DNA from: Bacillota bacterium
GTDB taxonomy: Bacteria > Bacillota > Dethiobacteria > DTU022
Length of the DNA: 64,000 nucleotides
Assembly: GCA_011389985.1 (NCBI GenBank)
Contig: JAABTH010000008.1
Location: 43,581-107,580 of the forward strand
Direction of reading: 5' to 3'
A program made the translations under genes and the position numbers. Positions 13,993 through 46,023 of this stretch are shown here, in pieces. The notes beneath the pieces were generated by a model, which was given only the letters and a program-made list of their open reading frames with translations, searched no databases and was not told the DNA's origin. The stretch's first letter is position 1; every line of letters starts with the position of its first letter.

Positions 13993-14033
13993 ATCTGTCA
14001 CCACTTTCTACTTAGTAAACTCTGATGCTATAT

Positions 14034-14438: not shown

Positions 14439-14460
14439 GATCATCTCTCCAATCTGTTTT

Positions 14461-14856
14461 TCAATTAAGCTTGCGTTTGATAAAACCGATGATATCTTCA
14501 GTCGAAGAACCGGGTGTAAATACTTCAGCAACACCGTGCTCTTTGAGATAAGTAATATCTTCTCTGGGTATGATACCGCCAACAACAACTATTATATCAC
14601 TGCTGTCCTGTTCCCGCAGCATTTCCACAATAGGCGGTATAAGCTGCATGTGTGCACCTGAAAGAATGCTTAAACCGATAACCTGCACATCTTCCTGCAG
14701 GGCGGTTTCGACAATCTGTTCCGGTGTTTGTCTCAGCCCTGTGTATATAACTTCCATGCCGGCATCTCGAAGCGCCTGGGCTACCACCTTCGCACCACGG
14801 TCATGGCCATCGAGACCTATTTTACCGACAAGCACCCGTAAAGGTTTATCGGCCAT
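14461..14856 (-). CDS. mcmA2: Methylmalonyl-CoA mutase, cobalamin-binding subunit
   Basis: [10 protein letters not shown] (DxHxxG B12 motif), [14 protein letters not shown]. Confidence 0.93.
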
Positions 14857-14890
14857 CCGTCAACTCCTCCTCGCATCTACAAGCTTTATT

Positions 14891-16564: not shown

Positions 16565-16613
16565 TAAGTCCTCTGCCCCCTTTCGGTATTAACCTGTTTC
16601 ATTTCAATTACAA

Positions 16614-17483
16614 CTAAGATAATATTTTCTTAATCATGGCCGGCACTTCATTAGGCAAACCGGCAACTTCCACACCGGCGGCATTAAGCGCTTTAACTTT
16701 GCTTTCAAAAGTACCTCTGCCTCTTTCAATAATAGCCCCGGCGTGTCCCATACGCTTACCCGGAGGCGCACTGCGACCGGCCAGATAAGCAATAACCGGT
16801 TTTTTCATCGACGAGGAAATAAAAGTTGCAGCCTCTTCCTCTGAGCTTCCACCGATTTCACCCACAAGTATTACCGTTTTTGTTTCCGGATCTTCTTCAA
16901 AGCGCCTGAGCACATCTATGAAATTCAAACCGACGACTCTGTCACCGCCGAGACCAACAACCGTAGTGGTTCCAATATCATTTCCGGTCAGGTGACCTAC
17001 AATTTCATAACAAAGGGTGCCACTGCGGGATACAATTCCCACCGGGCCGGGAACGAAATAACGGTTTGGCATAATACCAATCTTGGAACTTCCAGAGGAA
17101 ACCAGACCAAAAGTATTGGGACCCACAATTACTGCATTCTGTTTTTGGGCATAGGCCATAATATCCATGGCATCCTGCAGGGGGATATGTTCAGGAATAA
17201 GCACTATCAGCTTAACTCCTGCATCCAGCGCTTCAAATGCGGCGTCTCTGGCAAACGGTGCCGGTATAAAAAGAATACTGGCATCAACAGTTTCTTCCTC
17301 TATCGCCGCAAAAACAGTGTCGTAAACGGGGACTCCTTCAACATTCTGACCACCCTTACCAGGGGAGACCCCCGCGATTATATTTGTACCATATTCAAGC
17401 ATTTGTGCCGTATGAAAAGAACCCTGCTTGCCGGTAATACCCTGGACAAGCACACGGGTCTGTTTGTTAATAAATATTGACAT
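16614..17483 (-). CDS. sucD: Succinate--CoA ligase alpha subunit
   Basis: VQGITGKQG, GPNTFG, SRSGTL, GKRMGHAGA (phospho-His). Confidence 0.94.
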   Translation of the reverse strand: MSIFINKQTRVLVQGITGKQGSFHTAQMLEYGTNIIAGVSPGKGGQNVEGVPVYDTVFAAIEEETVDASILFIPAPFARDAAFEALDAGVKLIVLIPEHIPLQDAMDIMAYAQKQNAVIVGPNTFGLVSSGSSKIGIMPNRYFVPGPVGIVSRSGTLCYEIVGHLTGNDIGTTTVVGLGGDRVVGLNFIDVLRRFEEDPETKTVILVGEIGGSSEEEAATFISSSMKKPVIAYLAGRSAPPGKRMGHAGAIIERGRGTFESKVKALNAAGVEVAGLPNEVPAMIKKILS

Positions 17484-17576
17484 TAGCTCTACTCCTTTCT
17501 TCTATGCAGTTTGAAACAAAAATCCTTAAAATAAGATTGGAAACTGTTCTACTTAAGTTCAAAACAGAACAGGTTC

Positions 17577-18686
17577 TCAAGATGCTTCGGTTAGATCAAC
17601 GGCATGACGAACTGCTTCATCCATTGAATTAAAGGTTTTAATGCCAACTTTTTCTAATATAGCCCGGCCTTCAGCTTCTTTAGTCCCCACAAGCCGGAAA
17701 GAAACCGGAAGATCAATACCTTTACTTTCTCGTACTTTAACAAAACCTTCCGCAACGATATCGCACCGGGTTATGCCGCCAAAAATATTTATCAATAATA
17801 CCTTGGGGTTTGTACCGAGAAGCAGTTCTAATGCCTGGGCAGTTCTTTCAACACTGGCGCCTCCACCAAAATCAAGGAAATTGGCTGCTGCTCCTCCGTA
17901 GTGCTGAACCATGTCAAGAGTAGCCATTGTAATGCCTGCCCCATTGGCCATTACGGCAATATTACCATCAAGTTCCACATAAGCAATATCGAGTTCTTCA
18001 GCTTTTAACTCAAGGTCTGTTTTTTCCTTAACCCGCGGCAGCTGCGGATGACGGTAAAGAGCATCATCATCAATTGTAACCTTAGCATCGGCTGCCACCA
18101 GACCGTCAGGTGTAAGCGCCAATGGATTAATTTCCGCCAATTCCGCATCAAGCTCTCTAAACATTTTATACAGCTTGGGCAGCAGTTTGATAAATTCTTT
18201 TTGCAGGGCGCCGCTAACACCCATCCTGCGGCAAATTTCACGGGTCATGTAATCCTGCAGTCCGATTGAAACATCAATCGGCCATTTGATCATCCGACCT
18301 TCAGCCACTTCTTCAACATCCATGCCCCCATCAAGAGAAGCAAGTACTACCGGGCAGCGTAAAGCTCCGTCAACTGTAAGAGCAAGGTATAGTTCCTGTT
18401 CAATTTGCAGTTTTTCTTCCACCAGCAGTTTCTCAACAGTTAAGTCATTTAAACGCATATTGAGGATACGTTCTGCTTCTTTCCTGGCTTCACCGGGATT
18501 TGAGGCAAAAGCAATACCCCCGGCTTTACCTCTTTTACCGCTTAAAACCTGTGATTTAATTACTACATCCCCAAGCTCCGCAGCAGCTTCGGCAGCCTCT
18601 TCAGGGCTTTCAACTATTTTGCTGTGCGGCACAGGGATATCGTAGCGGTGAAACAACTTCTTTCCAAGGTATTCATAAAGCTTCAA
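17577..18686 (-). CDS. sucC: Succinate--CoA ligase beta subunit
   Basis: LYEYLGK, KSQVLSGKRGKAGG, EINPL, DAK, NGAG, ANFLDFGG, NIFGGITRCD. Confidence 0.94.
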   Translation of the reverse strand: MKLYEYLGKKLFHRYDIPVPHSKIVESPEEAAEAAAELGDVVIKSQVLSGKRGKAGGIAFASNPGEARKEAERILNMRLNDLTVEKLLVEEKLQIEQELYLALTVDGALRCPVVLASLDGGMDVEEVAEGRMIKWPIDVSIGLQDYMTREICRRMGVSGALQKEFIKLLPKLYKMFRELDAELAEINPLALTPDGLVAADAKVTIDDDALYRHPQLPRVKEKTDLELKAEELDIAYVELDGNIAVMANGAGITMATLDMVQHYGGAAANFLDFGGGASVERTAQALELLLGTNPKVLLINIFGGITRCDIVAEGFVKVRESKGIDLPVSFRLVGTKEAEGRAILEKVGIKTFNSMDEAVRHAVDLTEAS

Positions 18687-18725
18687 CTTAATTCCCCCAT
18701 TCTCATAAGATGTTATAGTGCAATA

Positions 18726-20414
18726 TCAGTTGCTGTATTTCTTAAGCTTGTTGTAAAGGGTTGCCAGAGAAATATTTAAAGCCTGGGCAGCTTTCTTTTT
18801 GCCTTCAAGACTTTCACCATACCTGGTTAGAGCCAGTTTTAGCATCATTTCTTCCATTTTGTCAAGTGGAATAATTTCATCTATAATTTGCGGTTCACTT
18901 ACCCCCAACCGCCCAATATAGGGAAGCAGGTGATGATACTCGATAACCTGACCTTCGGCTACTACCATGGAGCGTTCAATAGCGCTTTTCAATTCGCTGA
19001 TATTCCCCGGCCATTCATATTCGGACATCTCCTGCAGTGCCCGCGGCGATATTTCGGTAATCTTTTTACCCAGTTTACGATTTAACCGGTCGATAAGTGC
19101 TTCTGCAAGCAGATGTATATCTTCAGACCGTTTCCGCAGCGGAGGAAGCTCAACTGTAACAAGGCTTAAAAGCCGGTAGAGTTTTTCAGAAAAATATCCC
19201 TGAATTGATGCCTGCAAAAGGTTCTCAGCAGTAGAGGCAATAATTCTGACATCTGCTGAAATAGGCTGCTCACCGCCAATGCGACAAAAGGTATTATTTT
19301 CGAGCAGCTGTTGCAGTCCTTTCTGCAAAAAAGGGTTAAGTGAATTTAATTCCTTGATAAAGAGGGTGCTGCCTTCAGCCAATTCTATTTTTCCAATCCT
19401 GGTGCGAAGTACTCCCGGCATAGCGCCCTTTTCGCACCCAAAAAGTTCAATCTCCTGGAGTGAGTCGGGAACAGCTGAACAGTCAAATATAATTAACGGT
19501 CTTTTCTTGCGAGCGCTGTTATTGTGGATAGCGTGAGCAAATAGAGCTTTTCCTGTACCACTTTCACCACTTAACAAAACAGCCGACTCGCTCCGGGCTG
19601 CTTTCCGTGCTTTCTCAATTGTAGCTGTATAAATTTTACTCTGGCCGGATAAAAATTCAAAGCTGAACCTGCTTCCGGAAATCTGGTCGATTTGAGCATA
19701 AAGGTTATCAATTATTGCATTACTGTGCCGCAGTTCATCCATAAGTTTCAGAATATCTCCAACGGGCTGGAAAACAACTACCGCACCCATCAGTTCACCG
19801 TCAACTATAATCGGCGAAGCATTAGAGATCACATCTGCATCTGAACCGCCAACATACGTGCGGTATCCTGTAACAGGCTTTTGCTGAATAAGAGACTGGG
19901 CCAAAGCTCCGTGCGGCGACACCTCAAATATACTTCTTCCAAGACGTTTACTCTCCGGTATACCTGTTACTCTCGTGAAAGCAGGGTTTACATATTTGAT
20001 GATCCCCTTGTCATTAACTACCTCTACCGCATCCTGAACGGCGCTTAATATTGCTCTCAGCTCACCCTGCAGCAAACGGGTTTCAAGCAGCTGTTCACGT
20101 GAATTGATGATAGCCCCGAGGAGGGAATTTGGTGTCAGGCATTCAAGCTTAGCTCCATTAACCAGCTTTCCGGCCAGGTAATCCCTGATTTTTGGTTCAC
20201 CGGTTGCATCTAAAACAGTTTCCAATTCTGGCAATGCAACGATCTTGTCAAGATCTGCTGTAACAAAATAGTTTTTTTTCTCCGTCTCGGTAAACCAGTC
20301 GATCTGACCATCAGGGCAGGCTACTCCAACTATCTCAATTTCATCGCATTGCTGAAGAACACGGAACAGTTCAGCACTGCTGTTACCTTTTATTACTAAC
20401 GCTGTTTTAATCAA
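18726..20414 (-). CDS. PAS-domain sigma54-interaction (AAA+)/Fis-HTH transcriptional regulator with degenerate catalytic motifs
   Basis: PAS region (YVNPAFTRVTG), Walker A GESGTGK, ELFG, WPGN, C-terminal HTH (AAQALNISLATLYNKLKKY). GAFTGA is replaced by GAMPGV. Confidence 0.88.
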   Translation of the reverse strand: MIKTALVIKGNSSAELFRVLQQCDEIEIVGVACPDGQIDWFTETEKKNYFVTADLDKIVALPELETVLDATGEPKIRDYLAGKLVNGAKLECLTPNSLLGAIINSREQLLETRLLQGELRAILSAVQDAVEVVNDKGIIKYVNPAFTRVTGIPESKRLGRSIFEVSPHGALAQSLIQQKPVTGYRTYVGGSDADVISNASPIIVDGELMGAVVVFQPVGDILKLMDELRHSNAIIDNLYAQIDQISGSRFSFEFLSGQSKIYTATIEKARKAARSESAVLLSGESGTGKALFAHAIHNNSARKKRPLIIFDCSAVPDSLQEIELFGCEKGAMPGVLRTRIGKIELAEGSTLFIKELNSLNPFLQKGLQQLLENNTFCRIGGEQPISADVRIIASTAENLLQASIQGYFSEKLYRLLSLVTVELPPLRKRSEDIHLLAEALIDRLNRKLGKKITEISPRALQEMSEYEWPGNISELKSAIERSMVVAEGQVIEYHHLLPYIGRLGVSEPQIIDEIIPLDKMEEMMLKLALTRYGESLEGKKKAAQALNISLATLYNKLKKYSN

Positions 20415-32223: not shown

Positions 32224-32688
32224 TTATTCCGGTTCACTGCATTCTGTTGGTTTATCTTCAATAAAACCTGTGATAACCGGCTTATAACGCGGGTTATCCT
32301 TTACTCTTTTATCCCATTTACGGATAAAAAAATAAACTAAAGCCATAAGAGCAAAACCGGCAGATACAGCAGGTAATTCCTGTCTTCCATCAAGGCCAAA
32401 ATAGGGGGAAACCAGTGTTAACCAAACCACAATACCTGCTACAAGGGCAAAGATGGGAACCATGTAGAGCATGAAAGCTAATAATATAATCTGACTATCA
32501 TCAGACTCAAGCAAAACTCTTTGTCCTTTTTTAGCATTGATCGGATTAAGCGCTTCAACAATCACTTCTCGTTTATTTGATCCGCTTAATAAACCACAGC
32601 GGCCGCACTTTTCACAGACAAGATGGCGCTGAAGATTAATTAAAGCTGTTTCACCTTTATTTTCTGTCACCAAGCCGTACTGCTCCAT
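32224..32688 (-). CDS. rseC: RseC/MucC family protein (SoxR-reducing system)
   Basis: MEQYGLV.., CEKCGRC, A.N.I.AK.GQRV, LYMVP and two C-terminal TM helices. Confidence 0.8.
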   Translation of the reverse strand: MEQYGLVTENKGETALINLQRHLVCEKCGRCGLLSGSNKREVIVEALNPINAKKGQRVLLESDDSQIILLAFMLYMVPIFALVAGIVVWLTLVSPYFGLDGRQELPAVSAGFALMALVYFFIRKWDKRVKDNPRYKPVITGFIEDKPTECSEPE

Positions 32689-32952: not shown

Positions 32953-33801
32953 CTAGGCAAATGCTTCGGGGATATCTTTTAAAACAGCATAACTGAAAAC
33001 AGGACCGTCTTTACATACGTACATACCTCCGGCATTACAACGACCGCACTTGCCAATACCACATTTCATCCTGTTTTCCAGGGTTGTATAAATCTGCTCG
33101 TCTGCAAAACCCAGTTTTTTAAGATTTTCGAGAACAAAGCGAATCATAATCGGCGGACCACAGGTGATTACGATTGTGTCCTCTGGCGAAGGGTTAAGAT
33201 CCAGTAGCATTTGTGGCACAAAACCGACATTGTGTCCCCAACCTTCTTCCTCAACATCAATCGTGAGATGACAGGAAAGACCATCAGACTTACTCATCTC
33301 TTCAAATTCACCTTTAAAACAAAGATCACCTGAAGTCCTGGCACCATAGATCATTGTTAATCCGGCATATTTGTCGCGGTTTGCCTTAACATATTCTACA
33401 ACCGGGCGAAGCGGCGCCTGACCAACTCCTCCTCCGACAGTCAGGATCTGCTTACCATGCCAGTCATCTACAGGGAAGCTATTACCATAAGGACCTCTGA
33501 CCATCATTTTATCACCGGGTTCTAGCTGGTGCAGCGCCTGGGTTACTTTACCCATTTTCATTACTGAAAATCGTAAAAATTCACCCTCCGTTGGTGAACA
33601 GGAGATGGAAATCATGCTTTCACCCACTCCCAAAATTCCGATCATGGCACACTGACCCGGACGGTGGTTCCAGTTGGTCCGGACATCTTCATCATCAAAA
33701 ACCACTTTAAAGGTTTTGATACAGCGATCACCGCCGGTTTCATACCAGGTTTCTTCAACAGTAGCCGTATAAGGAATGTAAGGGTTTTCAGCAGTCATCA
33801 T
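32953..33801 (-). CDS. flxA: FAD/NAD(P)-binding oxidoreductase with [2Fe-2S] (FlxA/AsrB-like)
   Basis: PGQ, GESMISI, RGPYGN, GGGVGQAPLR, CGPPIM, MKCGIGKCGRC..C motifs. Confidence 0.85.
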   Translation of the reverse strand: MMTAENPYIPYTATVEETWYETGGDRCIKTFKVVFDDEDVRTNWNHRPGQCAMIGILGVGESMISISCSPTEGEFLRFSVMKMGKVTQALHQLEPGDKMMVRGPYGNSFPVDDWHGKQILTVGGGVGQAPLRPVVEYVKANRDKYAGLTMIYGARTSGDLCFKGEFEEMSKSDGLSCHLTIDVEEEGWGHNVGFVPQMLLDLNPSPEDTIVITCGPPIMIRFVLENLKKLGFADEQIYTTLENRMKCGIGKCGRCNAGGMYVCKDGPVFSYAVLKDIPEAFA

Positions 33802-34811
33802 AGCGCCTCCTTTACCTGCCTCAGTATTTCAACAATGTCAATATTGACAGGGCAGAGGTTTATACACCGGCCACAGCCAACGCAGGCAATGACATCAAAC
33901 TTATCTACATAATAATTATATTTGTGGTTAATCCGGTTCCTGGTCCGTTCCCGGCGTGTAGGTCGGGGATTATGACCTGAAGTATGAAGGGTATATTCTT
34001 CAAACATGCAGGAATCCCACATACGGCAGCGTCTTGCTTCAAAGCCTTCCGTCTCATCCTGTATGTCAAAACAGTGACAGGTCGGGCAGAGATAAGTGCA
34101 GGTTCCACAACCAAGACATGAGGCCGAAACACTCTTCCAGAGGGGATCTTCCCACAAACCCGGAAGGCCTTCCGGAATACCTTTATGATCAACCGAGCGC
34201 TTTATCTTTCCTTCAGATTCTGAAACCATTTTCTTTTTCATCTTTATTTTTTCAGTATCTGCTTCAATAAGCAGCTCGCTTACTTCGCTTACGAGCGCTT
34301 CACCTTTTGGCGTAATGGTTTCCAACAGATAACTGTCGCCGAGGTCAACCATAAGCAAATCCAAACCCTCAGTTGATGCAGGGCCACCGCCAAGGGAGGT
34401 GCAAAAACAATTTAACCCAGGCTCTGAACAGGCAAGGCCAACAAGGGTTACCAGTTCACGCCTTTTCAGGTAGTATGGATCGTCTACATCCCAGCTGAAA
34501 AGCTTGTCGACTATAACCATAGCCCTGGCGTCACAGGGTCTTATTCCAAGAAGAATCATTTCTTCTTTAAGTTCAGGTTCCTTCATTTCAAAATCTCCAA
34601 GCTGAAAACGGTACATGGTTTCAGTTTGGGGAAATACGATATTTTTTGGGGGAATCCTGGTATTGCCATCTGTCAATTCAGGCACTTCATCTTCTGCCAC
34701 AGGGGCAAAACGCATCGCTTCACCTTCAAGTTTTGGCGCCCAAAGGTTTTTACCGGTCAGTTTTCCGATAAATTCAGGCCACTTCTCTTTATTTAACAGC
34801 ATCGCTGACAT
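33798..34811 (-). CDS. flxB: 4Fe-4S dicluster protein (FlxB/AsrA-like)
   Basis: GIRPCD, CFC, CLGCGTCTYLCPTCHCF, WDSC, CVGCGRCINLCP motifs. Confidence 0.82.
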   Translation of the reverse strand: MSAMLLNKEKWPEFIGKLTGKNLWAPKLEGEAMRFAPVAEDEVPELTDGNTRIPPKNIVFPQTETMYRFQLGDFEMKEPELKEEMILLGIRPCDARAMVIVDKLFSWDVDDPYYLKRRELVTLVGLACSEPGLNCFCTSLGGGPASTEGLDLLMVDLGDSYLLETITPKGEALVSEVSELLIEADTEKIKMKKKMVSESEGKIKRSVDHKGIPEGLPGLWEDPLWKSVSASCLGCGTCTYLCPTCHCFDIQDETEGFEARRCRMWDSCMFEEYTLHTSGHNPRPTRRERTRNRINHKYNYYVDKFDVIACVGCGRCINLCPVNIDIVEILRQVKEAL

Positions 34812-34822
34812 ATCACCCACCT

Positions 34823-35803
34823 CTACAGTATGAAGTCCTCGGGATCATCAGGCTTAAAGCTGGCCTGGAACGGCTCGGCCTCGGGATCTACCCCTGGCTC
34901 AAAGCCGTATTTGTCCCGAACTTCCCTGGCCATTTTACGGTTTAGCTTGCCCAGGGGAATATTAGCCGGGCAAACCCGCTCGCACTCACCGCATTCGATG
35001 CAGCGACCGGCCAGGTGAAAAGCCCGGGCAATGTTGAAAGCTGTATTCTCGGAAAAATTGACCGCACGATTAACCCAGGTAGGATTTAGACGATCAAGAA
35101 TGCAATCCTGACAATAGCAAAGCGGACAGACATTACGGCAACTATAACAGCGGATACACTTTGAGAACTGCTCTTCCCAGTAAGCCTGACGCTCTTCAAG
35201 GTTTTTACCTTCAATCTCTTCAACACCATTATCATCAGCTAATGTCCATGGTTCAACTGGTTCGCCAACTGTAATATCACTGATTACCGGGTTAGGATGC
35301 CGGCAAAGACGACATTTTTCTGCAAGGAATTGATCTCTGGGAAGCTCAGTCTCTTTATCGTCGCAAAGCAGGACAAAATTTTCTCCATTCCATTCAACTT
35401 CAGCAGGTTTCCCTTGCTCCGGGTATTTTTCAGCAAGTTTTTCCGTGTCAACAACACCCGGGCAGGGGCAGCCGACAACTATAACCTGATCACGATTAAT
35501 ACCATGCTCTACAATAAGCTGCGTTACAGCGCGGCTGTCACATCCCTTGACCAGCAGGGCAACTTTACGTTTATCGGCTTCCTGGCCTCGCGGCAGTGGT
35601 GTTTTCTCAACAAGGGTCAGGTATGTAGCCAGGTTGGCAGTGCAGAGGGGCGAAAATAGCAACTCTGCAGCGCCGGAGGCATCTTCGACGAAAACAGGGG
35701 CAACCCTGTAACCGTAAGAACCCTGCTTCCACCCAATCAGGTACTTAACATCTTCACGGACCACTACCTCTGCCGCGGTTTTGCGTAACTGTTCCAGATC
35801 CAT
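34823..35803 (-). CDS. flxC: 4Fe-4S dicluster protein (FlxC-like)
   Basis: KGCDSRA, KCRLC, KCIRCYSCRNVCPLCYCQDC, HLAGRCIECGECERVCP motifs. Confidence 0.82.
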   Translation of the reverse strand: MDLEQLRKTAAEVVVREDVKYLIGWKQGSYGYRVAPVFVEDASGAAELLFSPLCTANLATYLTLVEKTPLPRGQEADKRKVALLVKGCDSRAVTQLIVEHGINRDQVIVVGCPCPGVVDTEKLAEKYPEQGKPAEVEWNGENFVLLCDDKETELPRDQFLAEKCRLCRHPNPVISDITVGEPVEPWTLADDNGVEEIEGKNLEERQAYWEEQFSKCIRCYSCRNVCPLCYCQDCILDRLNPTWVNRAVNFSENTAFNIARAFHLAGRCIECGECERVCPANIPLGKLNRKMAREVRDKYGFEPGVDPEAEPFQASFKPDDPEDFIL

Positions 35804-35818
35804 CTTCTAATACCCCTC

Positions 35819-36250
35819 CTACCAGTCGATCTGCCGACGTCTGAAACCTTCAAAGGGACCGGCTTCTCGCGCTTCTTCGACGGTTTTTTCCACAACTTCT
35901 TTCCACTTGTGACCTTCGGAGGCCGATACCCAACTCATATGGAACCTTTTTGGATCGACACCAACAAATTCCATCAGGTCTTTTAACATGCCCATGCGGC
36001 GCCGAGCATAAAAATTGCCTTCCATATAATGACAGTCGCCAGGATGGCAACCCGATATCAGCACACCGTCTGCTCCCTGCTGCAGGGCGTTCATTACATA
36101 AAGAGGATTTACCCGTCCGGAACACATCACCCGTATAACCTGGATGTTGGCCGGGTAGTGCACCCGGCTTGTTCCGGCCAGGTCGGCCCCTGCATAAGAG
36201 CACCAGTTACATAGAAATGCTACAATATTAGGTTCATAGTTCTCGCTCAT
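35819..36250 (-). CDS. mvhD: MvhD/FlxD [2Fe-2S] subunit
   Basis: FLCNWCSYAGAD, RVMCSGRV, GADGV, GCHPGDCHY, WVSASEG motifs. Confidence 0.92.
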   Translation of the reverse strand: MSENYEPNIVAFLCNWCSYAGADLAGTSRVHYPANIQVIRVMCSGRVNPLYVMNALQQGADGVLISGCHPGDCHYMEGNFYARRRMGMLKDLMEFVGVDPKRFHMSWVSASEGHKWKEVVEKTVEEAREAGPFEGFRRRQIDW

Positions 36251-38247
36251 TTCAAGACCCCCAATGCTGCAATCTGCGGTAGAATCTGGCGATCACGGAA
36301 AGACTTCGGCTGAATTGAATCAGATAAGCAACCTGCTGAACATGAACCGCAGCCTTTGCAAAGAGCTTCATTAACCCGGGCCACCTCAACTTCATGGCCA
36401 AAACGGTTTATTTTCACGAGCTCAATAGCCGTGTAGGGGCAGATATTGACACAAAAACCGCAACCCCTGCAAGTGGCTTCATCAACCTCGGCAACCTGCG
36501 CACTAATCATCACCTTGCCCCTGGCCAGGGGTATCATCGCCGACGAAGCGGCTCCCTTGGCCTGAGCAACTGTATCAGGAATATCCTTAGGCCCCTGGCA
36601 GCATCCGGCCAGAAAAACGCCTTCTGTCGCAGTATCCACCGGCCGAAGTTTCGGGTGAGCTTCTAAAAAGAACCGATCCGGTGATTGGGACAACCTCAGT
36701 AAATCCATAATTTCGCGCATATCGGCACGCGGTTCAAGGCCGACACCCAGCACAACCAGATCAACTTCATCTTCAAGTGGCGTAGCTGTAAGAGTATCCT
36801 CTACCTTTACCACCAGTTTATTGCCACGTTTAAAAATTTCTGATGGATTACCCCTGATGTAGCGCACATTTTCACGGCGAACCCTATCGTAGAATTCTTC
36901 AAAACCCTTGCCAAAAGCTCTTACATCTATGTAGTAAACTCTGATATTGGCATCAGGAATTTTATCCCTGATCAGGTGAGCCTGTTTTGCCACATACATA
37001 CAGCAGACTCGCGAGCAGTATTCATTACCCACGCTGGCATCGCGTGAACCGACACACTTAATAAATGCAACTTCTTTCGGCTCGATTTCCTCTTCACCGT
37101 TAAAAACTTTCACTTTACCACCGGTAGGACCAGAAGCAGATACGAGTCTCTCCATCTCCATACCGGTAATGACATTTGGATAATCGTTATACCCATATTC
37201 CGGTTTTCTTGAAGCGTCAAAAGGATCAAAGCCGGTTGCAACAATAACCGCTCCAACTTTGAACTCGACAATTTCATCTTCCTGTTCGAAATTGATTGCT
37301 TCAGCTTTACACACTTCCTGGCATTTCGGTCCTTTGCCGCACTTGCCCCTGGTTAGATAAAGGCAGCTTTCCGGATCAATTGTGTACTTTGCCGGTACTG
37401 CCTGGGGAAAGGGAAGGTATATCGCCGAGCGTTTACCCATACCCTGGTCAAATTCACTGGGAAAGCGATCTTTAACCCGGCACTCGGCAGCGCAATCTCC
37501 ACAACCGGTACACTTATCAAAGTCCACATAACGCGCTTTTTTGCGCACCTTTACATCAAAGTTACCGATATAACCACCAATCTCTTCCACTTCAGAATAG
37601 CTCAATAACTCTATATTCGGATGACTGGCACAATCAACCATTTTTGGGGTCAAAATGCAGGCTGAGCAGTCAAGAGTGGGAAATGTTTTATCCAGCTGAG
37701 CCATCCGCCCGCCTACAGAAGGGGTTTTTTCGACAAGAAATACCTTAAAACCGGCATCGGCAATGTCGAGGGCAGCCTGAATACCGGCTATGCCGGCGCC
37801 AATAATCAAAGCAGCCGGCTCGGCATCTACCTCTTTTGATTCAAGAGCTTCCAGAAGTCTAACTTTGGCTACTGCCGAAGCAACCAGCTTTTTCGATTTT
37901 GCCGTGGCTTCTTCCATATCCTCATGAACCCATGAGCACTGCTCCCTTATGTTGGCCATCTCAAGATAATAAGGGTTCAGGCCAGCTTCCTGGATTGCTT
38001 TCCGGAAAGTCGGTTCATGCATACGGGGAGAACATGAGGCCACAATAATCCGGTTAAGGCCATGTTCTTTGATATCATTTTTAATCAGAACCTGCCCGGG
38101 ATCGGAACACATGTATGAATATGTGCGCGCCACTTCAACATTGGGCAGCTTCAGTGCATAATCCGCAACTGTTTCCACATCTACCGTTGCAGATATATTA
38201 ATTCCACAGTGGCAGACGTAGACACCCACTTTCGGTTTATCCGTCAT
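36247..38247 (-). CDS. hdrA: Heterodisulfide reductase subunit A (electron-bifurcating flavoprotein)
   Basis: GVYVCHCG, ASCSPRMHE, NIREQCSW, IGAGIAG, KTFPTLDCSAC, CVGSR, CSRVCCMYVAK, GPKDI and two ferredoxin domains. Start could be 38247 or 38259. Confidence 0.95.
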   Translation of the reverse strand: MTDKPKVGVYVCHCGINISATVDVETVADYALKLPNVEVARTYSYMCSDPGQVLIKNDIKEHGLNRIIVASCSPRMHEPTFRKAIQEAGLNPYYLEMANIREQCSWVHEDMEEATAKSKKLVASAVAKVRLLEALESKEVDAEPAALIIGAGIAGIQAALDIADAGFKVFLVEKTPSVGGRMAQLDKTFPTLDCSACILTPKMVDCASHPNIELLSYSEVEEIGGYIGNFDVKVRKKARYVDFDKCTGCGDCAAECRVKDRFPSEFDQGMGKRSAIYLPFPQAVPAKYTIDPESCLYLTRGKCGKGPKCQEVCKAEAINFEQEDEIVEFKVGAVIVATGFDPFDASRKPEYGYNDYPNVITGMEMERLVSASGPTGGKVKVFNGEEEIEPKEVAFIKCVGSRDASVGNEYCSRVCCMYVAKQAHLIRDKIPDANIRVYYIDVRAFGKGFEEFYDRVRRENVRYIRGNPSEIFKRGNKLVVKVEDTLTATPLEDEVDLVVLGVGLEPRADMREIMDLLRLSQSPDRFFLEAHPKLRPVDTATEGVFLAGCCQGPKDIPDTVAQAKGAASSAMIPLARGKVMISAQVAEVDEATCRGCGFCVNICPYTAIELVKINRFGHEVEVARVNEALCKGCGSCSAGCLSDSIQPKSFRDRQILPQIAALGVLK

Positions 38248-38290
38248 CTGGTTTTTCATCCTCCCGCAAAGATTGGCCTATTCTGATCTA

Positions 38291-39265
38291 TTAGCCTTTC
38301 AGCTCCTTAAGCTTTTCAATCAGTTTGGGCACAACCTTGAACATATCGTCAACGATAGCATAATCAGCCACGGTAAAGATCGGAGCCTCGGGGTCTTTAT
38401 TAATTGCCACTACAGTTTTGGCTCCTTTCATGCCGGCCACGTGCTGGAACGCTCCTGAAATACCCATAGCAATGTATAGTTTTGGCTTGACGGACTTACC
38501 CGATGTGCCTACCTGGCGGTCATGGGGAATCCATCCGGCATCGGTCGCTGCTCTTGAACCGGCTATATCGGCTCTTATTGCCTGAGCCAGTTCTTCAATT
38601 ATGGATAAATTTTTGTCTTCTTTAAGACCACGTCCTACGGCAACCAGGGTATCTGACTGGGTTATGTCAACATCGCCAACTTCAGCTTCGATATATTCCA
38701 CAAAACTTCGATAGGTTAGATCGTCCTTAAGTGGCGAATCGACTTTTTCAACTGCACCATCTGCAGCTGCATCCGGAGGTTCGACAACACCTTCACGAAT
38801 AGTAACCAGGTAGGTATCTGCCGGTTTAAAAGCAACCGTAGCATTAACCTTTCCTGAATATAGCTGCCGTGTAGCCTTGAGCGTGCCGTTGGCATATTCA
38901 AGTGAAATTGCTTCGGCAACCAGGGGCAGATTCTTTTCAACTGCCAGAGCCGGTATAAAATCGACCCCCTGAGCGGTCTGGCCGGTCATAACCACGGCCG
39001 GTTTAAGATCGTCGATAAGGGCTGATAATACTTTCTGATATTTTTCGGCATTAAAATTTTCAAAGAGGGGATCATCAACAACCAAAACTTTAGACCCATA
39101 AGCTGCCATTTTTTTGGCCAGATCATCCATTTTGCTGCCGACAAGCAGTACGGTTACTTCACAGCCCATATCTTCAGCAAGCTTAGGGGCTAGAGCCATC
39201 ATTTCATAGGAAATATCTCGTAAGGCACCCTGACGATGTTCAGCTAAAACGAGAATGTTACCCAT
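38291..39265 (-). CDS. etfA: Electron transfer flavoprotein alpha subunit
   Basis: [42 protein letters not shown] motifs. Confidence 0.95.
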
Positions 39266-40053
39266 TATACCAAGCCTCCTTTAACAAGGATTGAAGCCAG
39301 TTTTTCGGCTTTTTCCTCGGCTTCACCTTCAATAAATTCAGCAGAAGATTCAACCTCGGGGATATAAAGCTCCTCAAGAACAACCATGGAAGCATCAGAT
39401 CCGACTGAAGCAGGGTCAACACCAAGATCATCGAGGCTTACAACTTTAAGCTCCTTCTTCTGAGCCTGGCGAATTCCACGAATTGGAGCATAACGTGGCT
39501 CATTAATACCGGTTTGAATTGTCAATACTGCCGGCAATTCAAGCTCAACTACTTCTAAAAGGCCACCTTCAAGCTCGCGGTGCGCCCGTACTTTGCCATC
39601 AAGAACCTCTACTTTCTTAACCATAGAAGCATGATTTACACCCAATTCTTCAGCAAGGGCGACACCGGTCGACATATGACCGTCGTCACTGGCCATACAC
39701 CCCGTTAGCACCAGGTCGAACTCCTGTCCCTTGATTGCAGCGGCGAGCGCCTTTGCCACCATAAGGGGATCATGGCCGGCAATACGATCATCTTCAATAC
39801 GAACTGCCTGATCGCAACCTTTGGCCATTGCCATGCGAATCATAACATCAGACTTTTTCGGTCCAATCGAAACAACAGTGACATCGCCTTCCTTTGCTTC
39901 CTTGATCAAAACCGACTCTTCCACGGCATAATTGTCAGCATCATTAATATCGAAGGAAAAACGACTGCTGTCAACTGTGACACCATCAGGATTGACCTTA
40001 ACTTCTGCTTCAGAAGTATCAGGCACATACTTGATACAAACAAACATTTTCAT
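39265..40053 (-). CDS. etfB: Electron transfer flavoprotein beta subunit
   Basis: VCIKYVPD, DNYAVEE, NEPRY motifs. Start set to ATG 40053. Confidence 0.94.
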   Translation of the reverse strand: MKMFVCIKYVPDTSEAEVKVNPDGVTVDSSRFSFDINDADNYAVEESVLIKEAKEGDVTVVSIGPKKSDVMIRMAMAKGCDQAVRIEDDRIAGHDPLMVAKALAAAIKGQEFDLVLTGCMASDDGHMSTGVALAEELGVNHASMVKKVEVLDGKVRAHRELEGGLLEVVELELPAVLTIQTGINEPRYAPIRGIRQAQKKELKVVSLDDLGVDPASVGSDASMVVLEELYIPEVESSAEFIEGEAEEKAEKLASILVKGGLV

Positions 40054-40089
40054 AATTCTTTCCACCTCCTACCAGGATTAAGGCTTAAT

Positions 40090-41226
40090 TTAAGCTTCAA
40101 CAAATTCACCCAGAAGCTCCATGATTTCGGCAACACGCATTTCTTCCTCATAACCAAGGCTTTTCATGGCATCTTCGAGAGTTAATACACAGAAGGGACA
40201 GGCCACAGCAACAATATCAGCCTCAAGGGCTTTAGCATCCTTGATCCGCGTTTCGGCCAACCGTTCCTTCTTAGATTCAGATTCAACCCACATTTTGCCT
40301 CCTCCGCCTTCACAGCAGAGACTGCGCTCGCGACTGCGTTCAAACTCAACCATTTTAACACCTGGTATATTCTTCAGCAAAGTCCGCGGCTCGTCATAAA
40401 CATTACTCTGTTTGCCCAGGTAACATGGATCATGATATACAATCGTTTTCTGAAGATCGCCTTTCCAGTTCAACTTTCCTTCTTCAAGCAGTTCTACAAG
40501 CAGTTGGGTGTAATGAATCACCTCTGCCTTTAAATCAGGATAACGAGTTTTATAGGTGGTAAAACAGTGAGGCGAAAGGCAAACTAAACGTTTGGCTGTA
40601 TATTCATTTAGAAGTTCAGTGTTATCTTCAACAAGCATTTCAAACAGACCCTCTTCGCCAAGGGTGAAAACTTCACTGCCGCAGCAGGTTTCACTTTCAT
40701 CGAGAAAAGCGTAATCGACCCCGGACTTGTTTAAAAGACCAACTATATTCCTGGCAATTGATTTCACCCTGGGGTCATAAGCTATGGTGCAGCATACGAA
40801 AAAGAGATTTTCTACAGGTACCCCGGGTTCAGCTATCTTAACATCAAGACCTTCCATCCAGTCACTTCTGGCAGCTCTCGATTTTTCCCAGGGATTACCC
40901 TCAAGAAGAACACTCTGCAGGGCGTCACGCACAGTCGGCTCGACTTTTCCGCTCTCAATAATCATTGTTCGAAGTCCAAGCAAAACCTCCAGAGGTTTTA
41001 AGCCTTTCGGACAACGGACGGCACAAGTATGACAAGCTGTACAATCCCAAATCTCGGCCAGCCTGGCCAGTTCATCTAGCTTCTCTTCATAATAGGCATC
41101 ATATACAAAACGGCGCACGTTCAGGTCGGCCCTAACAGTAACCGGGCACCCACCAGTACAGCGGCCGCATTGGATACAACCCAGCAGATCGTATTTTTCG
41201 GTGAATGTCTGGCTTTCGGTACTCAT
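40090..41226 (-). CDS. Soluble HdrD-like/DUF224 Fe-S oxidoreductase (two 4Fe-4S motifs plus two CCG domains)
   Basis: CIQCGRCTGGCP, CTACHTCAVRCP, GNPW, ETCCG..SPHC, YHDPCYLG..CCEGGG..ACPFC; no TM segments. Confidence 0.88.
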   Translation of the reverse strand: MSTESQTFTEKYDLLGCIQCGRCTGGCPVTVRADLNVRRFVYDAYYEEKLDELARLAEIWDCTACHTCAVRCPKGLKPLEVLLGLRTMIIESGKVEPTVRDALQSVLLEGNPWEKSRAARSDWMEGLDVKIAEPGVPVENLFFVCCTIAYDPRVKSIARNIVGLLNKSGVDYAFLDESETCCGSEVFTLGEEGLFEMLVEDNTELLNEYTAKRLVCLSPHCFTTYKTRYPDLKAEVIHYTQLLVELLEEGKLNWKGDLQKTIVYHDPCYLGKQSNVYDEPRTLLKNIPGVKMVEFERSRERSLCCEGGGGKMWVESESKKERLAETRIKDAKALEADIVAVACPFCVLTLEDAMKSLGYEEEMRVAEIMELLGEFVEA

Positions 41227-41393
41227 TAGCATACCCCGCATCATTAAGTAATTGTTTTGCTGCCCTTCTGCCGGTTGTTAACATTTTGTTTGCCGGATCA
41301 AGGGAACATGCTTTTGGGTTCTTTTAGCCCCACCTCCTATTTTTTATAATGAATTGTAAGACAATTTCAATAAAAGCAGGTTATATTAGAGGA

Positions 41394-41419
41394 TTTCGAC
41401 ATTTTCTTCAATATATCCT
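41394..41419 (-). promoter_or_regulatory. Putative sigma-H promoter of the etf-hdr-flx operon
   Basis: GCAGGA-18 nt-GAAA (GTCGAAAT). Confidence 0.5.
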
Positions 41420-41521
41420 GCTTCTTATTTTTAAATTCTTAAATATTTTCCATGAACAACTATTGACCCTGTTAAGCGATTAATTGTCCGCTTTTAATAT
41501 ACAATTTTGGCATCCAAATAA

Positions 41522-42574
41522 TTATAAAATAACAATATTAGCCGAAGGCGCGGCATCTGTAATAGAGCCGATAATGCTGCCGGTACATCCACGCCGCTCA
41601 AGTGCATTCAGGTATTGTTCGCCTTTTTCCTCAGGAATGGCAACAAGCAGGCCTCCCGAGGTCTGAGGGTCTGCCAGGATAATCATTGCATCGTCTTTTT
41701 CTTCCGGTATGCCCTGCCAATCAAGATGCGGGCGCATGTAATCAAGATTGCGATAGGCGCCACCCGGGATCATTCCCATGGCGGCCATTTCTTTAACTGC
41801 CGGGTATAGAAAGACTTTTTTATGCTCAATTTCGGCGCTTACACCACTCGACAAAAGCATCTCGTAGAGGTGCCCGAGCAGACTGAAACCGGTTATATCA
41901 GTACATGAGGATACGCCAACCTCGAGCATCACCTCTGACGCAGACGAGTTTAAAGTAGCCATGCCGCTGATAACGTCCTCAGCATCCTTTTCTGTGATCA
42001 TATCCCCTTTTATAGCTGTGGCAATAATGCCTGTACCCAGCGGTTTTGTCAGAATCAGTATGTCTCCGGGTTTAGCATTGCTGCCTGTTACAAGCTTCTT
42101 TATCTCAACCAGGCCTGTTACGGACAAACCATACTTAGGTTCATTATCCTCAATACTGTGTCCGCCAACTATAACAGCTCCCGCTTCAATAACCTTGTCG
42201 TAACCGCCACGTAGTATGGCTTCCATTATTTCAAGCGGCTGACAATTTACCGGAAAGCAAATGATATTCAGTGCCGTAAGCGGTTTCGCCCCCATGGCAT
42301 AGACATCACTAAGGGCATTGGCTGCCGCTATCTGGCCAAAAGTATAGGGATCATCTACTATTGGTGTGAAAAAATCAATGGTCTGCACCAGGGCATGGGT
42401 TTCAGATATACGGTAAACACCAGCGTCAGAAAAATGCTGGTTCCGGTTTAGATAGTTTGGATCATCAAATTGCGGCAGTTTGCGCAGAACCTGCGCCAGG
42501 GCTTCAGGCCCAATTTTTGCCGCTCAGCCGGCACTGGCTGTCATCGTGGTCAGACGTATCTCTTCGCGACTCAC
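41522..42574 (-). CDS. selD: Selenide, water dikinase; selenoprotein (UGA at 42526-42524 read as Sec)
   Basis: GTG 42574 after AGGAGGTG gives MSREEIRLTTMTASAG-U-AAKIGP, in frame with QTIDFFTPIVDDP, NALSDVYAMG, GGHS, TDITGF, DPQTSGGLL. Confidence 0.94.
42499..42526 (-). promoter_or_regulatory. Putative bacterial SECIS element in selD
   Basis: TGA followed 12 nt later by the hairpin GGGC-CTGAA-GCCC. Confidence 0.6.
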
Positions 42575-42601
42575 TCCTAACACCTCCTACATATTGGCAC
42601 A

Positions 42602-44515
42602 TTATAGTTTCAGTTTATGAGGAACACGGTAGTCTTCAACACGGCGGGTAAATTTGGTCTGGTCAAAATGCTCCAGCAGTGCCTGGGCAAATTTGCGTGA
42701 ACTACCAGTTATATCCCTGAATTCAGCCAGGGTCAGTTTATCATTTTCGCTAAAATGCGCTTTAAGAAATTTGAGCGCTTCTTCATATGCTTCTTTGTGA
42801 AAATAGAGTTCTTCACTTACTTTTACCAGTATACCGCTGCTTTGAAGATAATTGTATAGTTCATCTTTACGGGCAGACGGAGCGCCGGCCTTTTCAATTG
42901 TTTCTTTTCCCGAAGGTGGCTGCAGTTGGCCGGAATGATATGCCCGTTCAATCGCATCAAGTATTTTTTGATCGCCCTCCGATGGTTGTGGTTCAAATCC
43001 GTAAAGGGCGAGGAGATTGCTTTTCATAGTTATTTTTTCTTGGGCCTGCATGTCTTCAAGTAAAGCATCATAGTCACGCTGGCTGAAGGCTGCCGGTAAA
43101 AATCCTTTTAACCGGGCCCGTGATACACCGGGCGCCAAGGGGTTTTTTTTATGGTATTTTTCCAACTCAGCTTGGATCTTGTTCTCATACTGATCAAGCA
43201 GTTCAGTTAGAAGAAAGGAATTTCCCAGTTTATGAATAATACCGCGTCCGGATAAGTCTTTCAGGACACTCTCTACTGTGGCAAGATCCAGACGGGTTTC
43301 TTTTGCAAGTTTCAGGCTGTCGGCAGCAATAAGTTCCTCTAATTTGCGGCGGATAAACGCTGAATCACCGCCTGCTGTGGGAGCCTGTTTTAATTCTTCC
43401 AGCCTTTCTATTACTTCTGAACGAAAACGTCGATGCTTAATTGGATATGGGTCTAACACCCTGCCTCCGCCAATAGTGGTCATCGGTGAATAAGAACGTA
43501 TAACAAAGGGATCACCACGCTCGGCAACCAGGGGTCGATCAAGACGACACTGAACGAGAGCGTTTTCACCAGGACGAAACTCATCCCGATCAAGCAAAAG
43601 CAGCTTTGCCACGCATCTTGCAGTGCCGAGAAAGAAATGAACAGGGTCAAGATTTTTCAACTGCCGTTTAGCCCGCGGCAGCAGTTCTACCAAAACATCC
43701 AACAGATCGGTCTGACGATAGTAACCCGGAGCGCTGATCACACTTCCCCTTAAGACTTCGTCTTTTTCAAGACCAGACAGGTTAAGAGCAACCCTGGAAC
43801 CGGCCACAGCTTCATCTACATCAGAATCGTGGACTTGAATGTTTCTAACCCGCGCCTCAAGCCCCGGAGGCACAACTGCAACTGTTTGCCCCACACGCAC
43901 AGATCCCTGAATTAAGGTTCCGGTTACAACAGTACCAAAACCGGAGATAATAAATGAGCGGTCAACCGGCAGTCTCAGTGGTCCTGATATGCTCCGGGTA
44001 TTCAACACTTCGGTCATCTCGTCAATCAATTTTTTTAACTCTTCAATCCCCTCGCCTTTAAGCGCTGAAACTGAAACAATGGGCGCATTTTCAAGAAACG
44101 TACTTTTAAGCTCATCTTTTATTTCTTCACTGACCAGCTCACGCCATTCTTCCTCAACCAGGTCAATCTTGGTAATAACCACAATACCTTTCTGAACCCC
44201 TAAGATCTCCAAAATATCAAGATGCTCCCTGGTCTGGGGCATGATGCCTTCGGAAGCATCGACAACAAGCATGACCAGGTCCATTCCGGCGGCTCCGGCC
44301 AGCATGTTGTGAATGAAACGTTCGTGACCGGGCACATCGACGATGCCGGCCAGTCGACCGCCAGGCAATCTAAAAGGAGCGAACCCAAGATCAATTGAAA
44401 TACCGCGCTCTTTTTCTTCCTGCAGTCGATCAGTATCAACTCCTGTCAGCGCTTTGATCAGGACTGTTTTACCGTGATCAACGTGACCGGCTGTGCCTAT
44501 GATCAGTTGTTCCAA
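42602..44515 (-). CDS. selB: Selenocysteine-specific translation elongation factor
   Basis: [31 protein letters not shown] and C-terminal winged helix ([13 protein letters not shown]). Confidence 0.97.
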
Positions 44516-44589
44516 TTATGCTGTATACCTCCCCTCAAAAAAGCTTAAGCATCTGTAATCAACATCCAAGATCTCCCGGGCAGTATCGA

Positions 44590-46023
44590 TTATTCGTTTC
44601 GAAAGTAATTTGTGCAAAAGAGGACAGTCTCGATTAAACGATCTTCCTGATTTTCAAATATTGTCCGGGGATCAAAGAGCAAACAGTTCTGCTGCAGGCG
44701 TAAGATTATTGGTGGATTACCATTTCGCAATTTTTCTGTAAAAGTTTCCGGAGGACCGAATGATGCATCAAGCGCCACCGAAACAATCGAAGTCGGCAGT
44801 TCTGCATTTGGCAGGGCGCCCCCGCCTACTCTTGATATACCGGGAATTACTTTTACATTATCGGCACCAAATATTGCAGAAAATCTTGAAGCAAGGTTTT
44901 CTGCTCTATTCTTAAGGTAGCCGGCGTCAGCAGTAAGCATCCGCCAGACCGGTATCTCACTTATCGCTTTATCTTCATCGTAATAAAGTCGCAGGGTGGC
45001 TTCCAGGGCTGCAACTGTAAACTTATCGATACGCAGCGTGCGTGCGAGCTGATTAGTGCGGATATACCGGATTAAATCTTTACGGCCAACAATAATACCA
45101 GCCTGAGGCCCACCAAGCATTTTATCTCCGCTGAAAGTAATAAGATCAGCCCCTGCTGAGATGCTGTCCTGTACTTTAGGTTCGAATGGAAGTTTATATT
45201 TTTCGAGGTCGAGCAAAACTCCGCTGCCCAAATCTTCAATCATCACCAGATTATGCTTATGAGCAAGATCTGCCAGTTCTTCAGTTTCTACTTCGGCTGT
45301 AAAACCAACCATTTGATAATTGCTGGTATGAACTTTGAGAAAGGCAGCACTATTTTCAGTAACAGCCGATTCATAGTCGCGCAAATAAGTTTTATTGGTT
45401 GTTCCAACCTCAATCAGGCGGGCTCCGCTGGCAGCCATAATTTCGGGAATTCGAAAAGATCCACCGATTTCAACCAGCTGCCCGCGGGAAACAACTACAT
45501 CACGCCCTGCAGCAAGTTCATTCAGGGCAAGAAAAACTGCAGCGGCATTATTATTAAGGACTATTGCCGCTTCAGAGCCTGTTAATTCACAAATTATATC
45601 TTCAAGATGATCCTGTCTTGAACCTCTCCTGCCATTTTGAAGGTTAAATTCAAGATTGTTATAGTTTCCGGCAACTGCTTTTAAAGCTTCAATAGCGGCT
45701 GAAGGAAGGGGCGCACGCCCCAAGTTGGTGTGTATTACAACACCTGTGGCATTAATAAGCGGTTTAATGTTCATAGCAGCTTTTTTATCAGCAAGCATTG
45801 CCGCTTCACGGGCAAGGCTTTCGGGTTTAAGACTAAGTTTGTCAAGAGCGGATTGATCGGCTCGGTGTTCGCTAATATATTGTCTATATGAATCGATTAT
45901 TTCCTGGACAGCTTGAACAACCAGGCTACGGGGCAGGGGTTTCGACACTTCCTCAATCGCAGGTTCACGCAACAGGCGATCGACAGCAGGCAGTTCACGT
46001 AAAAGAGAAGTATAGTCTGCCAC
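44590..46023 (-). CDS. selA: L-seryl-tRNA(Sec) selenium transferase
   Basis: INATGVVIHTNLGRA, NNNAAA, EIGGSFRIP, EVGTTNKT, FSGDKMLGGPQAG motifs. Confidence 0.97.
   Translation of the reverse strand: MADYTSLLRELPAVDRLLREPAIEEVSKPLPRSLVVQAVQEIIDSYRQYISEHRADQSALDKLSLKPESLAREAAMLADKKAAMNIKPLINATGVVIHTNLGRAPLPSAAIEALKAVAGNYNNLEFNLQNGRRGSRQDHLEDIICELTGSEAAIVLNNNAAAVFLALNELAAGRDVVVSRGQLVEIGGSFRIPEIMAASGARLIEVGTTNKTYLRDYESAVTENSAAFLKVHTSNYQMVGFTAEVETEELADLAHKHNLVMIEDLGSGVLLDLEKYKLPFEPKVQDSISAGADLITFSGDKMLGGPQAGIIVGRKDLIRYIRTNQLARTLRIDKFTVAALEATLRLYYDEDKAISEIPVWRMLTADAGYLKNRAENLASRFSAIFGADNVKVIPGISRVGGGALPNAELPTSIVSVALDASFGPPETFTEKLRNGNPPIILRLQQNCLLFDPRTIFENQEDRLIETVLFCTNYFRNE

Follow-up and report, generated by a model that had tools for sequence, protein, structure and literature searches.

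A candidate soluble HdrA-Flx complex joined to electron-transfer flavoprotein by a BamD-like adaptor in Dethiobacteria

Introduction

How are the electrons of acyl-CoA dehydrogenases (ACADs) handled in bacteria that have neither menaquinone synthesis nor an ETF:(methyl)menaquinone oxidoreductase (EMO; ETF, electron-transfer flavoprotein)? The question is raised by an eight-gene operon in a 64,000-nucleotide stretch of a Dethiobacteria genome (GCA_011389985.1, contig JAABTH010000008.1, positions 43,581 to 107,580; hereafter the window), where genes for an HdrD-like CCG protein and an ETF stand together with hdrA and Flx-type genes. The operon is a purifiable candidate for this role in an abundant uncultured class without either system, and precisely this gap in the handling of ACAD electrons appears in a beta-oxidation genome described from a digester in 2026. 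A preliminary description, made from the letters of the window, had proposed that acyl-CoA is oxidised by quinone-independent reverse electron transfer.

From the content and order of the genes, their motifs, homology and co-occurrence, we infer that the eight products form a soluble bifurcating complex. Electrons from NADH would enter at FlxA and pass through FlxB/C and MvhD to the flavin of HdrA, which would split them between ferredoxin (Fd) and a BamD-like iron-sulfur adaptor. The adaptor would dock and reduce a non-bifurcating ETF, which would serve ACADs encoded mostly elsewhere. The predicted net reaction is that of clostridial Bcd-EtfAB, 2 NADH + enoyl-CoA + 2 Fd(ox) -> 2 NAD+ + acyl-CoA + 2 Fd(red), and Rnf would then conserve energy from reduced ferredoxin. 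The downhill direction would prevail, though the reaction might reverse near equilibrium. We lean, with reservations, to this NADH-driven reduction of ferredoxin and enoyl-CoA, in which the complex would be a modular stand-in for Bcd-EtfAB. Coupling of the complex to ACADs through ETF appears likely, and operation is probably free of quinones. If true, no HdrA-ETF bifurcating system would be simpler, with NADH as input and ferredoxin and ETF as outputs, and HdrA chemistry could be studied more cleanly on it than on the megadalton benzoyl-CoA reductase. In that case, the carriers of the operon would be enoyl-CoA reducers, not fatty-acid oxidisers.

Gene content of the operon

The run occupies 32953-41244 on the minus strand and consists of eight intact co-oriented open reading frames (ORFs) with intergenic gaps of 24, -1, 31, -4, 15, 2 and -4 nt, as tightly coupled as first described. 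The gene order is HdrD-like CCG protein, etfB, etfA, hdrA, mvhD/flxD, flxC, flxB and flxA, the Flx names being those that we presume to apply. Pfam and NCBIfam assign the products, in the same order, to the CCG plus 4Fe-4S dicluster, ETF beta, ETF alpha, HdrA, FlpD/MvhD, two 4Fe-4S and FAD/NAD/2Fe-2S families. Neither hdrB nor hdrC, nor any hydrogenase or formate dehydrogenase catalytic gene, is found among the eight with these models, and no membrane segment is seen in the eight proteins (Kyte-Doolittle 19-residue windows all at most 1.82, the maximum being the FAD-binding strand of HdrA), in agreement with the preliminary description. Its statement on hdrB and hdrC holds for the operon but not for the genome, where a separate canonical operon hdrB-hdrC-hdrA-mvhD-flxC-flxB-flxA (L001:6964-13420, contig C10) is 38-57% identical, gene by gene, to the window genes.

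HdrA (36247-38259) is a full single-copy protein of methanogen type that matches 5odc_A with E 1.8e-250 over residues 7-664. The motifs ITGMEMERL and CCMYVAK reported earlier are present, with E370 and K425 (counted from the alignment) aligned to E356 and K409 of 5odc_A; we take this Glu and Lys to be the flavin-proximal pair. HdrA is thus the predicted bifurcating FAD subunit. Adjoining hdrA are a MvhD/FlxD 2Fe-2S adaptor (35819-36250; Pfam FlpD, E 9.8e-54), a FlxC-like 4Fe-4S protein (34823-35803; Pfam Fer4 and FrhB_FdhB_C, 41% identical to the same-slot product of the canonical operon), a FlxB-like 4Fe-4S protein of the AsrA/HydB family (33798-34820; Pfam Fer4_22, with NCBIfam ShyB/HydB/AsrA below cut-offs) and a FlxA-like FAD/NAD(P)H/2Fe-2S input subunit of the AsrB/HydG family (32953-33801; Pfam NAD_binding_1 and DHODB_Fe-S_bind). 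The top PDB match of the last is sulfhydrogenase gamma, 9nez_C.

EtfA (38291-39265; Pfam ETF and ETF_alpha) has no N-terminal ferredoxin domain. The top PDB match of EtfB (39265-40065; Pfam ETF) is the ETF beta of 1o94. A GDT-x-QVG stretch at the NADH/FAD site marks group II bifurcating ETFs; where bifurcating CarD has GDTAQVG, the window EtfB reads DGHMSTG (GCMASDDGHMSTG). The bifurcating stretch is absent from the window EtfB and from all 62 orthologues, and it was seen in 5/5 ETFs read from genomes without the operon. Judged by this stretch, the operon ETF is of the non-bifurcating type. Group I ETFs hold AMP and do not oxidise NADH (PMC5861303).

The CCG adaptor protein

The CCG gene (40090-41244) was called as a 384-aa ORF, whose numbering is used here; its true start is likely 41226, which gives 378 aa as in many orthologues and has a ribosome-binding-site-like run 6 nt upstream. 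The product is a soluble HdrC+HdrB-type fusion (Pfam CCG and Fer4) with two cubane motifs and two non-cubane CCG sites, the latter including the variants SPHC (224-227) and CCE (310-312) that had been noted at the outset. The top PDB sequence match is mycobacterial EtfD 9ojn (E 3.3e-50). EtfD is also the top fold match of the AlphaFold model (pLDDT 81.9), with TMq 0.75 and E 1.6e-20, versus 0.41-0.47 for HdrB chains. H226 aligns to EtfD H583; in EMOs this His occupies the coenzyme M site, and the clusters merely relay electrons (10.64898/2026.08.18.745454). EMO contacts ETF through EtfB.

A second parallel is BamD of class II benzoyl-CoA reductase (BCRII). His230, Trp325 and Tyr356 occupy its substrate site, and its distal cluster is altered by the replacement of a Cys with Ser; ETF is bound to BamD in situ and takes up electrons from it in vitro (10.64898/2026.04.10.717634). 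We compared the window protein with BamD through the published residue numbering and through the BamD-like protein of a Bam-type cluster found in this work (L096), which has SPHC and H226/W321/Y352, a spacing equal to that of H230/W325/Y356. S224, H226 and W319 of the window protein are identical to BamD, and F351 stands for the Tyr; all four residues are kept in 62/62 full-length orthologues. In a tree of 27 rows, in which two long rows were flagged, the window protein falls in a supported 18-row clade of mostly ETF-linked proteins; the BamD-like protein branches outside this clade with weaker support, and HdrB is distant. Taken together, the EtfD-like fold, the BamD/EtfD-type blocked site and the conserved S224/H226/W319/F351 suggest that the CCG protein is most likely an electron relay to ETF, not a disulfide reductase. 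The earlier proposal that ETF, not a disulfide, is the likely high-potential partner gains support from this BamD/EtfD-type site.

Several further features of the adaptor were observed. An extra Cys (CC for GC, 151-152) accompanies the Cys-to-Ser change at 224 in 62/62 orthologues, and both are common to four distant relatives; the pair may reflect the exchange of one ligand for another at the distal cluster. CCE in place of CCG runs throughout the ETF-linked clade and does not occur in the BamD-like protein. The Bam-type cluster itself (G065, L096:2481-13664) encodes AOR, ferredoxin, the BamD-like protein, a 931-aa protein in the BamE slot, a long MvhD, NuoE and NuoF, and adaptor paralogues at 36-41% identity occur in many class genomes. 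Together these suggest BCRII-like systems in quinone-less Dethiobacteria.

Conservation of the locus

Locus counts rest on the best 80 of 136 related stretches found in a genome scan, of which 69 are close loci (at least 60% identity) and 11 distant ones (46-51%). Among the close loci, etfB is next after the CCG gene in all 64 with enough sequence, the complete eight-gene order is present in 40/40 testable ones, and hdrB occurs in 0/69. The place of ETF in the operon, central to the preliminary description, is thus conserved.

The distant loci hold etf genes in 9/11, an HdrA-like gene in 10/11 and an ACAD gene in 5/11 cases, and neither flxA nor flxB in any of the 11. The order etfB-etfA-ACAD-CCG is found in four of them, in distant phyla, and in a fifth the ACAD gene is adjacent to that of the adaptor. 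One carrier (G104, L095:47-19985) has the operon between TRAP transporter-ACAD-thiolase-Hbd-ACAD genes, which lie directly upstream, and amidohydrolase-2-hydroxyacyl-CoA dehydratase-activator-MaoC-racemase genes, which follow it. This layout is the one expected for enoyl-CoA disproportionation, and judged from gene content it may be the best locus for a guess at the substrate.

The adaptor clade was also seen joined to other modules (L070:9998-15857, L073:6585-17553, L076:1679-7323). These inputs are an HdrA with a fused NfnB-like NAD(P)H domain, a piece of HdrA fused to NuoE and followed by NuoF, and HdrA-HdrC-HdrB (Methanolliviera). Different input modules can apparently be exchanged on an adaptor-ETF-HdrA core.

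Distribution in the class

We surveyed 120 genomes of the class, host included, that are at least 85% complete. With orthologues defined by at least 63% identity to the adaptor, 90 genomes are carriers; two of 92 matches, G034 (best match E 1e-25) and G066 (38% paralogue only), were dropped. ACADs are present in 100 genomes, including all 90 carriers, and 0/20 ACAD-less genomes carry the orthologue, a link to ACAD genes that the preliminary description had anticipated. G026 and G066 lack both the orthologue and ACAD, and their congeners have both.

The spread of other ETFs is nearly the opposite. Bifurcating-type EtfB occurs in 8 of the 10 ACAD-bearing non-carriers versus 5 of the 90 carriers, and a ferredoxin-fused EtfA query finds matches in 7/10 versus 2/90. 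This near-complementary distribution of the operon and self-bifurcating ETFs suggests two interchangeable solutions.

HdrB was detected in 66 of the 120 genomes. No HdrB match is found in 39 of the 90 carriers, including all those of genera g7, g9, g27 and g28; on this count HdrBC in trans, which the preliminary description had kept in view as the real partner, was rejected as a required one.

As to quinones, MqnA/D occurs in 1/120 genomes and MenD exceeds the cut-off in 0/120; the NarI-type heme-b domain (PF02665) was found in 0/120, in a search that did not include NrfD/PsrC and FdnI modules. The claimed quinone independence is upheld in that de novo menaquinone genes are nearly absent from the class. 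It is qualified by a MenA-like prenyltransferase in the host genome that falls just below the cut-off (99.4 versus 102.15), so that scavenging of a quinone precursor is possible.

The host genome is 96.8% complete. It encodes four ACADs, a thiolase-ACAD-ACAD-mutase cluster, a 2-hydroxyacyl-CoA dehydratase-like pair, five 2-oxoacid:ferredoxin oxidoreductase genes, Rnf and formate dehydrogenases, only two CCG proteins, and a second, divergent ETF that adjoins an FAD-linked oxidase fragment. [FeFe] and [NiFe] hydrogenases, acetyl-CoA synthase, MqnA/D and MenD were looked for in this genome and none was found. A separate host locus (L088:5777-17112, contig C7) encodes a PhsA-like molybdoenzyme pair and a selenocysteine-containing FdnG-FdnH formate dehydrogenase, both with twin-arginine-like leaders and followed by RnfC- and RnfD-like genes, not by a cytochrome b subunit. 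From its gene content this cluster is a candidate quinone-free link from outside formate to inside NAD(H).

Direction and alternative explanations

Thermodynamics and gene distribution both bear on the direction. The net reaction of Bcd-EtfAB, to which that predicted here is equivalent, is put at about -40 kJ/mol in the direction of enoyl-CoA reduction and is called essentially irreversible in vivo (Buckel and Thauer; PMC5861303). With assumed ranges of potentials, we computed +25 kJ for the oxidative direction at -10/-500/-320 mV and about zero at -70/-500/-280 mV; over 18 potential sets from these ranges, 11 are endergonic, 6 exergonic and 1 zero. The originally proposed reverse electron transfer would thus run uphill. 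Reduction is also favoured by a 2-hydroxyacyl-CoA dehydratase-like orthologue (at least 50% identity) that occurs in 49 genomes, all of them carriers, by the G104 layout, and by Rnf and the lack of detected hydrogenases in the host.

A number of observations weigh against a mainly reductive, ACAD-directed complex. No ACAD gene adjoins the operon in this genome, the nearest lying at 62207-63445 of the window, and 41 of the 90 carriers lack the dehydratase-like orthologue. FadN-type beta-oxidation genes occur in 63 of the 90 carriers, the host has a FadR-FadN-FadA cluster, and relatives of the adaptor clade are found in alkane-oxidising archaea (Methanolliviera; L076-L078), all of which points to oxidation. 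The likeness to BamD is inexact, with Phe at 351 for the BamD Tyr and CCE for the distal CCG. Moreover, the surveyed genomes are related, so the co-occurrence counts represent few independent events and are patterns, not statistics; six of the eight non-carriers with bifurcating-type ETF belong to one family, and most non-carriers come from two families.

The same complex might run mainly in reverse, a tentative reading that we consider possible but rather doubtful. Electrons would then flow from acyl-CoA to ETF, on to the adaptor and to HdrA, to be confurcated onto NAD+ with reduced ferredoxin supplied by reverse Rnf or 2-oxoacid oxidoreductases, a quinone-free reverse electron transfer for syntrophic oxidation of fatty acids or branched-chain amino acids. 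No EMO-type route was seen, given only two CCG proteins in the host and the near absence of NarI-type, MqnA/D and MenD genes in the class. The host oxidoreductases, Rnf and formate dehydrogenases, the Methanolliviera relatives and the six exergonic potential sets are further points in its favour. FadN cuts both ways: besides its presence in most carriers, seven of the other eight FadN genomes have a bifurcating-type ETF, but 23 of the 25 carriers of family f4 lack it. Against the oxidative direction also stand the eleven endergonic sets and reported irreversibility, the working of the BamD-ETF branch of BCRII as an acceptor (10.64898/2026.04.10.717634), and a FadR-like box found in 0/56 upstream regions of the operon, though one precedes fadR-fadN-fadA in the host (the consensus is one that we assumed). 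If oxidative, the complex would change the picture of syntrophic fatty-acid oxidation and provide a second answer to reverse electron transfer, in addition to the menaquinone redox loop that Syntrophomonas and Syntrophus use. It is conceivable, though we rate the chance as fairly low, that an entire quinone-less digester/soda-lake Firmicutes order oxidises acyl-CoA syntrophically via soluble HdrA-based confurcation; this would be the first HdrA complex with confurcation as its physiological job.

It is unlikely that ETF is the high-potential partner but mainly serves a client other than ACAD, such as an FAD-linked hydroxy-acid or glycolate/lactate dehydrogenase. No ACAD gene stands beside the operon here or in most close loci, and the second host ETF adjoins an FAD-linked oxidase fragment. 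However, the orthologue is confined to ACAD-bearing genomes in the class survey, and related operons of other phyla, as well as the G104 operon, contain or adjoin ACAD genes.

About equally unlikely is an ordinary Hdr-Flx system with etf genes as passengers, in which the CCG protein would reduce a disulfide in the manner of HdrD, or HdrBC would be borrowed from the other operon. In its favour, neither the two cubane motifs nor the proximal non-cubane ligands are disrupted, the host has canonical hdrBC, and there are known six-gene loci of the hdrA-mvhD-hdrD-flx kind that have no ETF (Dred_0137-48). The Cys-to-Ser change at the distal site, the His known from BamD and EMO to block the substrate site, the many carriers without HdrB, the separate hdrA and flx genes of the other hdrBC, the invariable adjacency of etfB and the position of the CCG protein among ETF-linked proteins, far from HdrB, all speak against it.

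Relation to known systems

Hdr-Flox of Desulfovibrio vulgaris was reportedly described by Ramos et al. in 2015. FlxABCD-HdrABC complexes of this bacterium and of syntrophs have the same FlxA/B/C/D-type input and full HdrA (PMC4759654, PMC6687939, PMC5017805). They contain HdrB and HdrC and use a disulfide such as DsrC as partner, whereas the window has one BamD-like adaptor plus EtfBA and a predicted ETF partner. Membership in this group was rejected: no HdrB/HdrC with an open, fully Cys-ligated disulfide site is present, hdrB is missing from the close loci, and the fusion carries S224/H226.

The BamDEF-ETF(BamOP) branch of BCRII shares the HdrA-type flavin and the MvhD-type adaptor, and BamD is the same soluble HdrBC-type fusion with Cys-to-Ser change, blocked coenzyme M/coenzyme B site and transfer of electrons to ETF (10.64898/2026.04.10.717634). 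In contrast to that branch, the window has no BamBC tungsten reductase, so the low-potential exit would be free ferredoxin; it has an Flx input where BCRII has HydBC-type BamGHI, a single HdrA where BCRII has fused BamE, and neither EMO nor menaquinone to reoxidise ETF. Membership in BCRII was rejected, since BamBC, fused BamE and HydBC-type BamGHI are all missing from the eight genes (compare L096). EMO/EtfD/DUF224 proteins (9ojn; 10.64898/2026.08.18.745454) have homologous cubane and non-cubane cytoplasmic domains, the same proximal-cluster His, a variable distal cluster and a non-bifurcating ETF partner. They also have a heme-b membrane domain and are linked to the quinone pool, whereas the window adaptor is wired to HdrA; it was rejected as an EMO for lack of a heme-b transmembrane domain in its 384 residues. 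Bifurcating Bcd-EtfAB of clostridia (PMC5861303) catalyses the net reaction predicted here with bifurcation on EtfB, whereas in the window it is predicted at the HdrA flavin with the NADH site on FlxA. Finally, the ETF/Fe-S oxidoreductase beside hdrABC in Ca. Methanoliparia (PMC6703427) is an adaptor of the same clade (46-47% identity) followed by etfB-etfA-hdrA. These loci retain hdrC-hdrB and lack flx genes; the window shows the opposite.

Other published arrangements come close. A membrane HdrF is encoded beside etfAB (PMC2702500). Desulfotomaculum reducens has a hdrA-mvhD-hdrD-flx locus without ETF, and an HdrD gene beside etf and bcd (PMC4759654). In syntrophs, Flox-Hdr, ETF-linked Fe-S reductase and Bcd/EtfAB are listed as separate systems (PMC5017805, PMC6687939, PMC7382037). 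An operon that joins Flx and HdrA genes to those of an ETF and an HdrD-like adaptor was not found described in the open-access literature searched, a scope that leaves aside subscription reviews of HdrA clusters and the supplementary tables of 2026 preprints; the tables of BamD or non-cubane domains in 10.64898/2026.04.10.717634 and 10.64898/2026.08.18.745454 may list this clade already. As BamD passes HdrA-type high-potential electrons to ETF (10.64898/2026.04.10.717634), the idea of ETF as partner is no longer new. The parts are known and the Flx-fed combination with ETF appears new, a predicted BamD-ETF branch on an Flx input that would resemble Bcd-EtfAB in net effect.

Operon boundaries and neighbouring genes

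The preliminary description placed the genes under one putative promoter. A sigma-70 scan gave no minus-strand match in the gap 41245-41521, and a terminator scan gave none 3' of flxA; co-transcription is therefore inferred from spacing. The gap does hold a conserved non-coding island 5' of the first gene (41352-41470, minus strand), seen in an alignment of 56 upstream regions, which is a probable promoter/operator region. Rex-, Spo0A- and CodY-like strings occur in 36, 42 and 16 of the 56 regions versus shuffle means of 7.9, 7.6 and 1.5. These matches were not used as evidence because the regions are related, the consensus strings were assumed by us and the Rex string has about 90 matches genome-wide at two mismatches. 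A Rex-type gene is present in the host, and the signal in the island is graded weak.

Directly upstream of the operon lie selA-selB-selD (41522-46023), with selD in this place in 43 related loci; an in-frame TGA 5' of the called selD start is expected of a selenoprotein. An RseC/MucC-like gene (32224-32688) follows flxA, as in 35 related loci. In the operon-less G099, a homologue of it (L099:685-1116) follows a bifurcating-type etfBA, a single hint that both systems occupy one slot. Elsewhere in the window (12451-20414), a sigma-54 activator gene is followed by genes for succinyl-CoA synthetase, methylmalonyl-CoA mutase, an epimerase-like protein and carboxyltransferase, which make up a succinate-propionate pathway.

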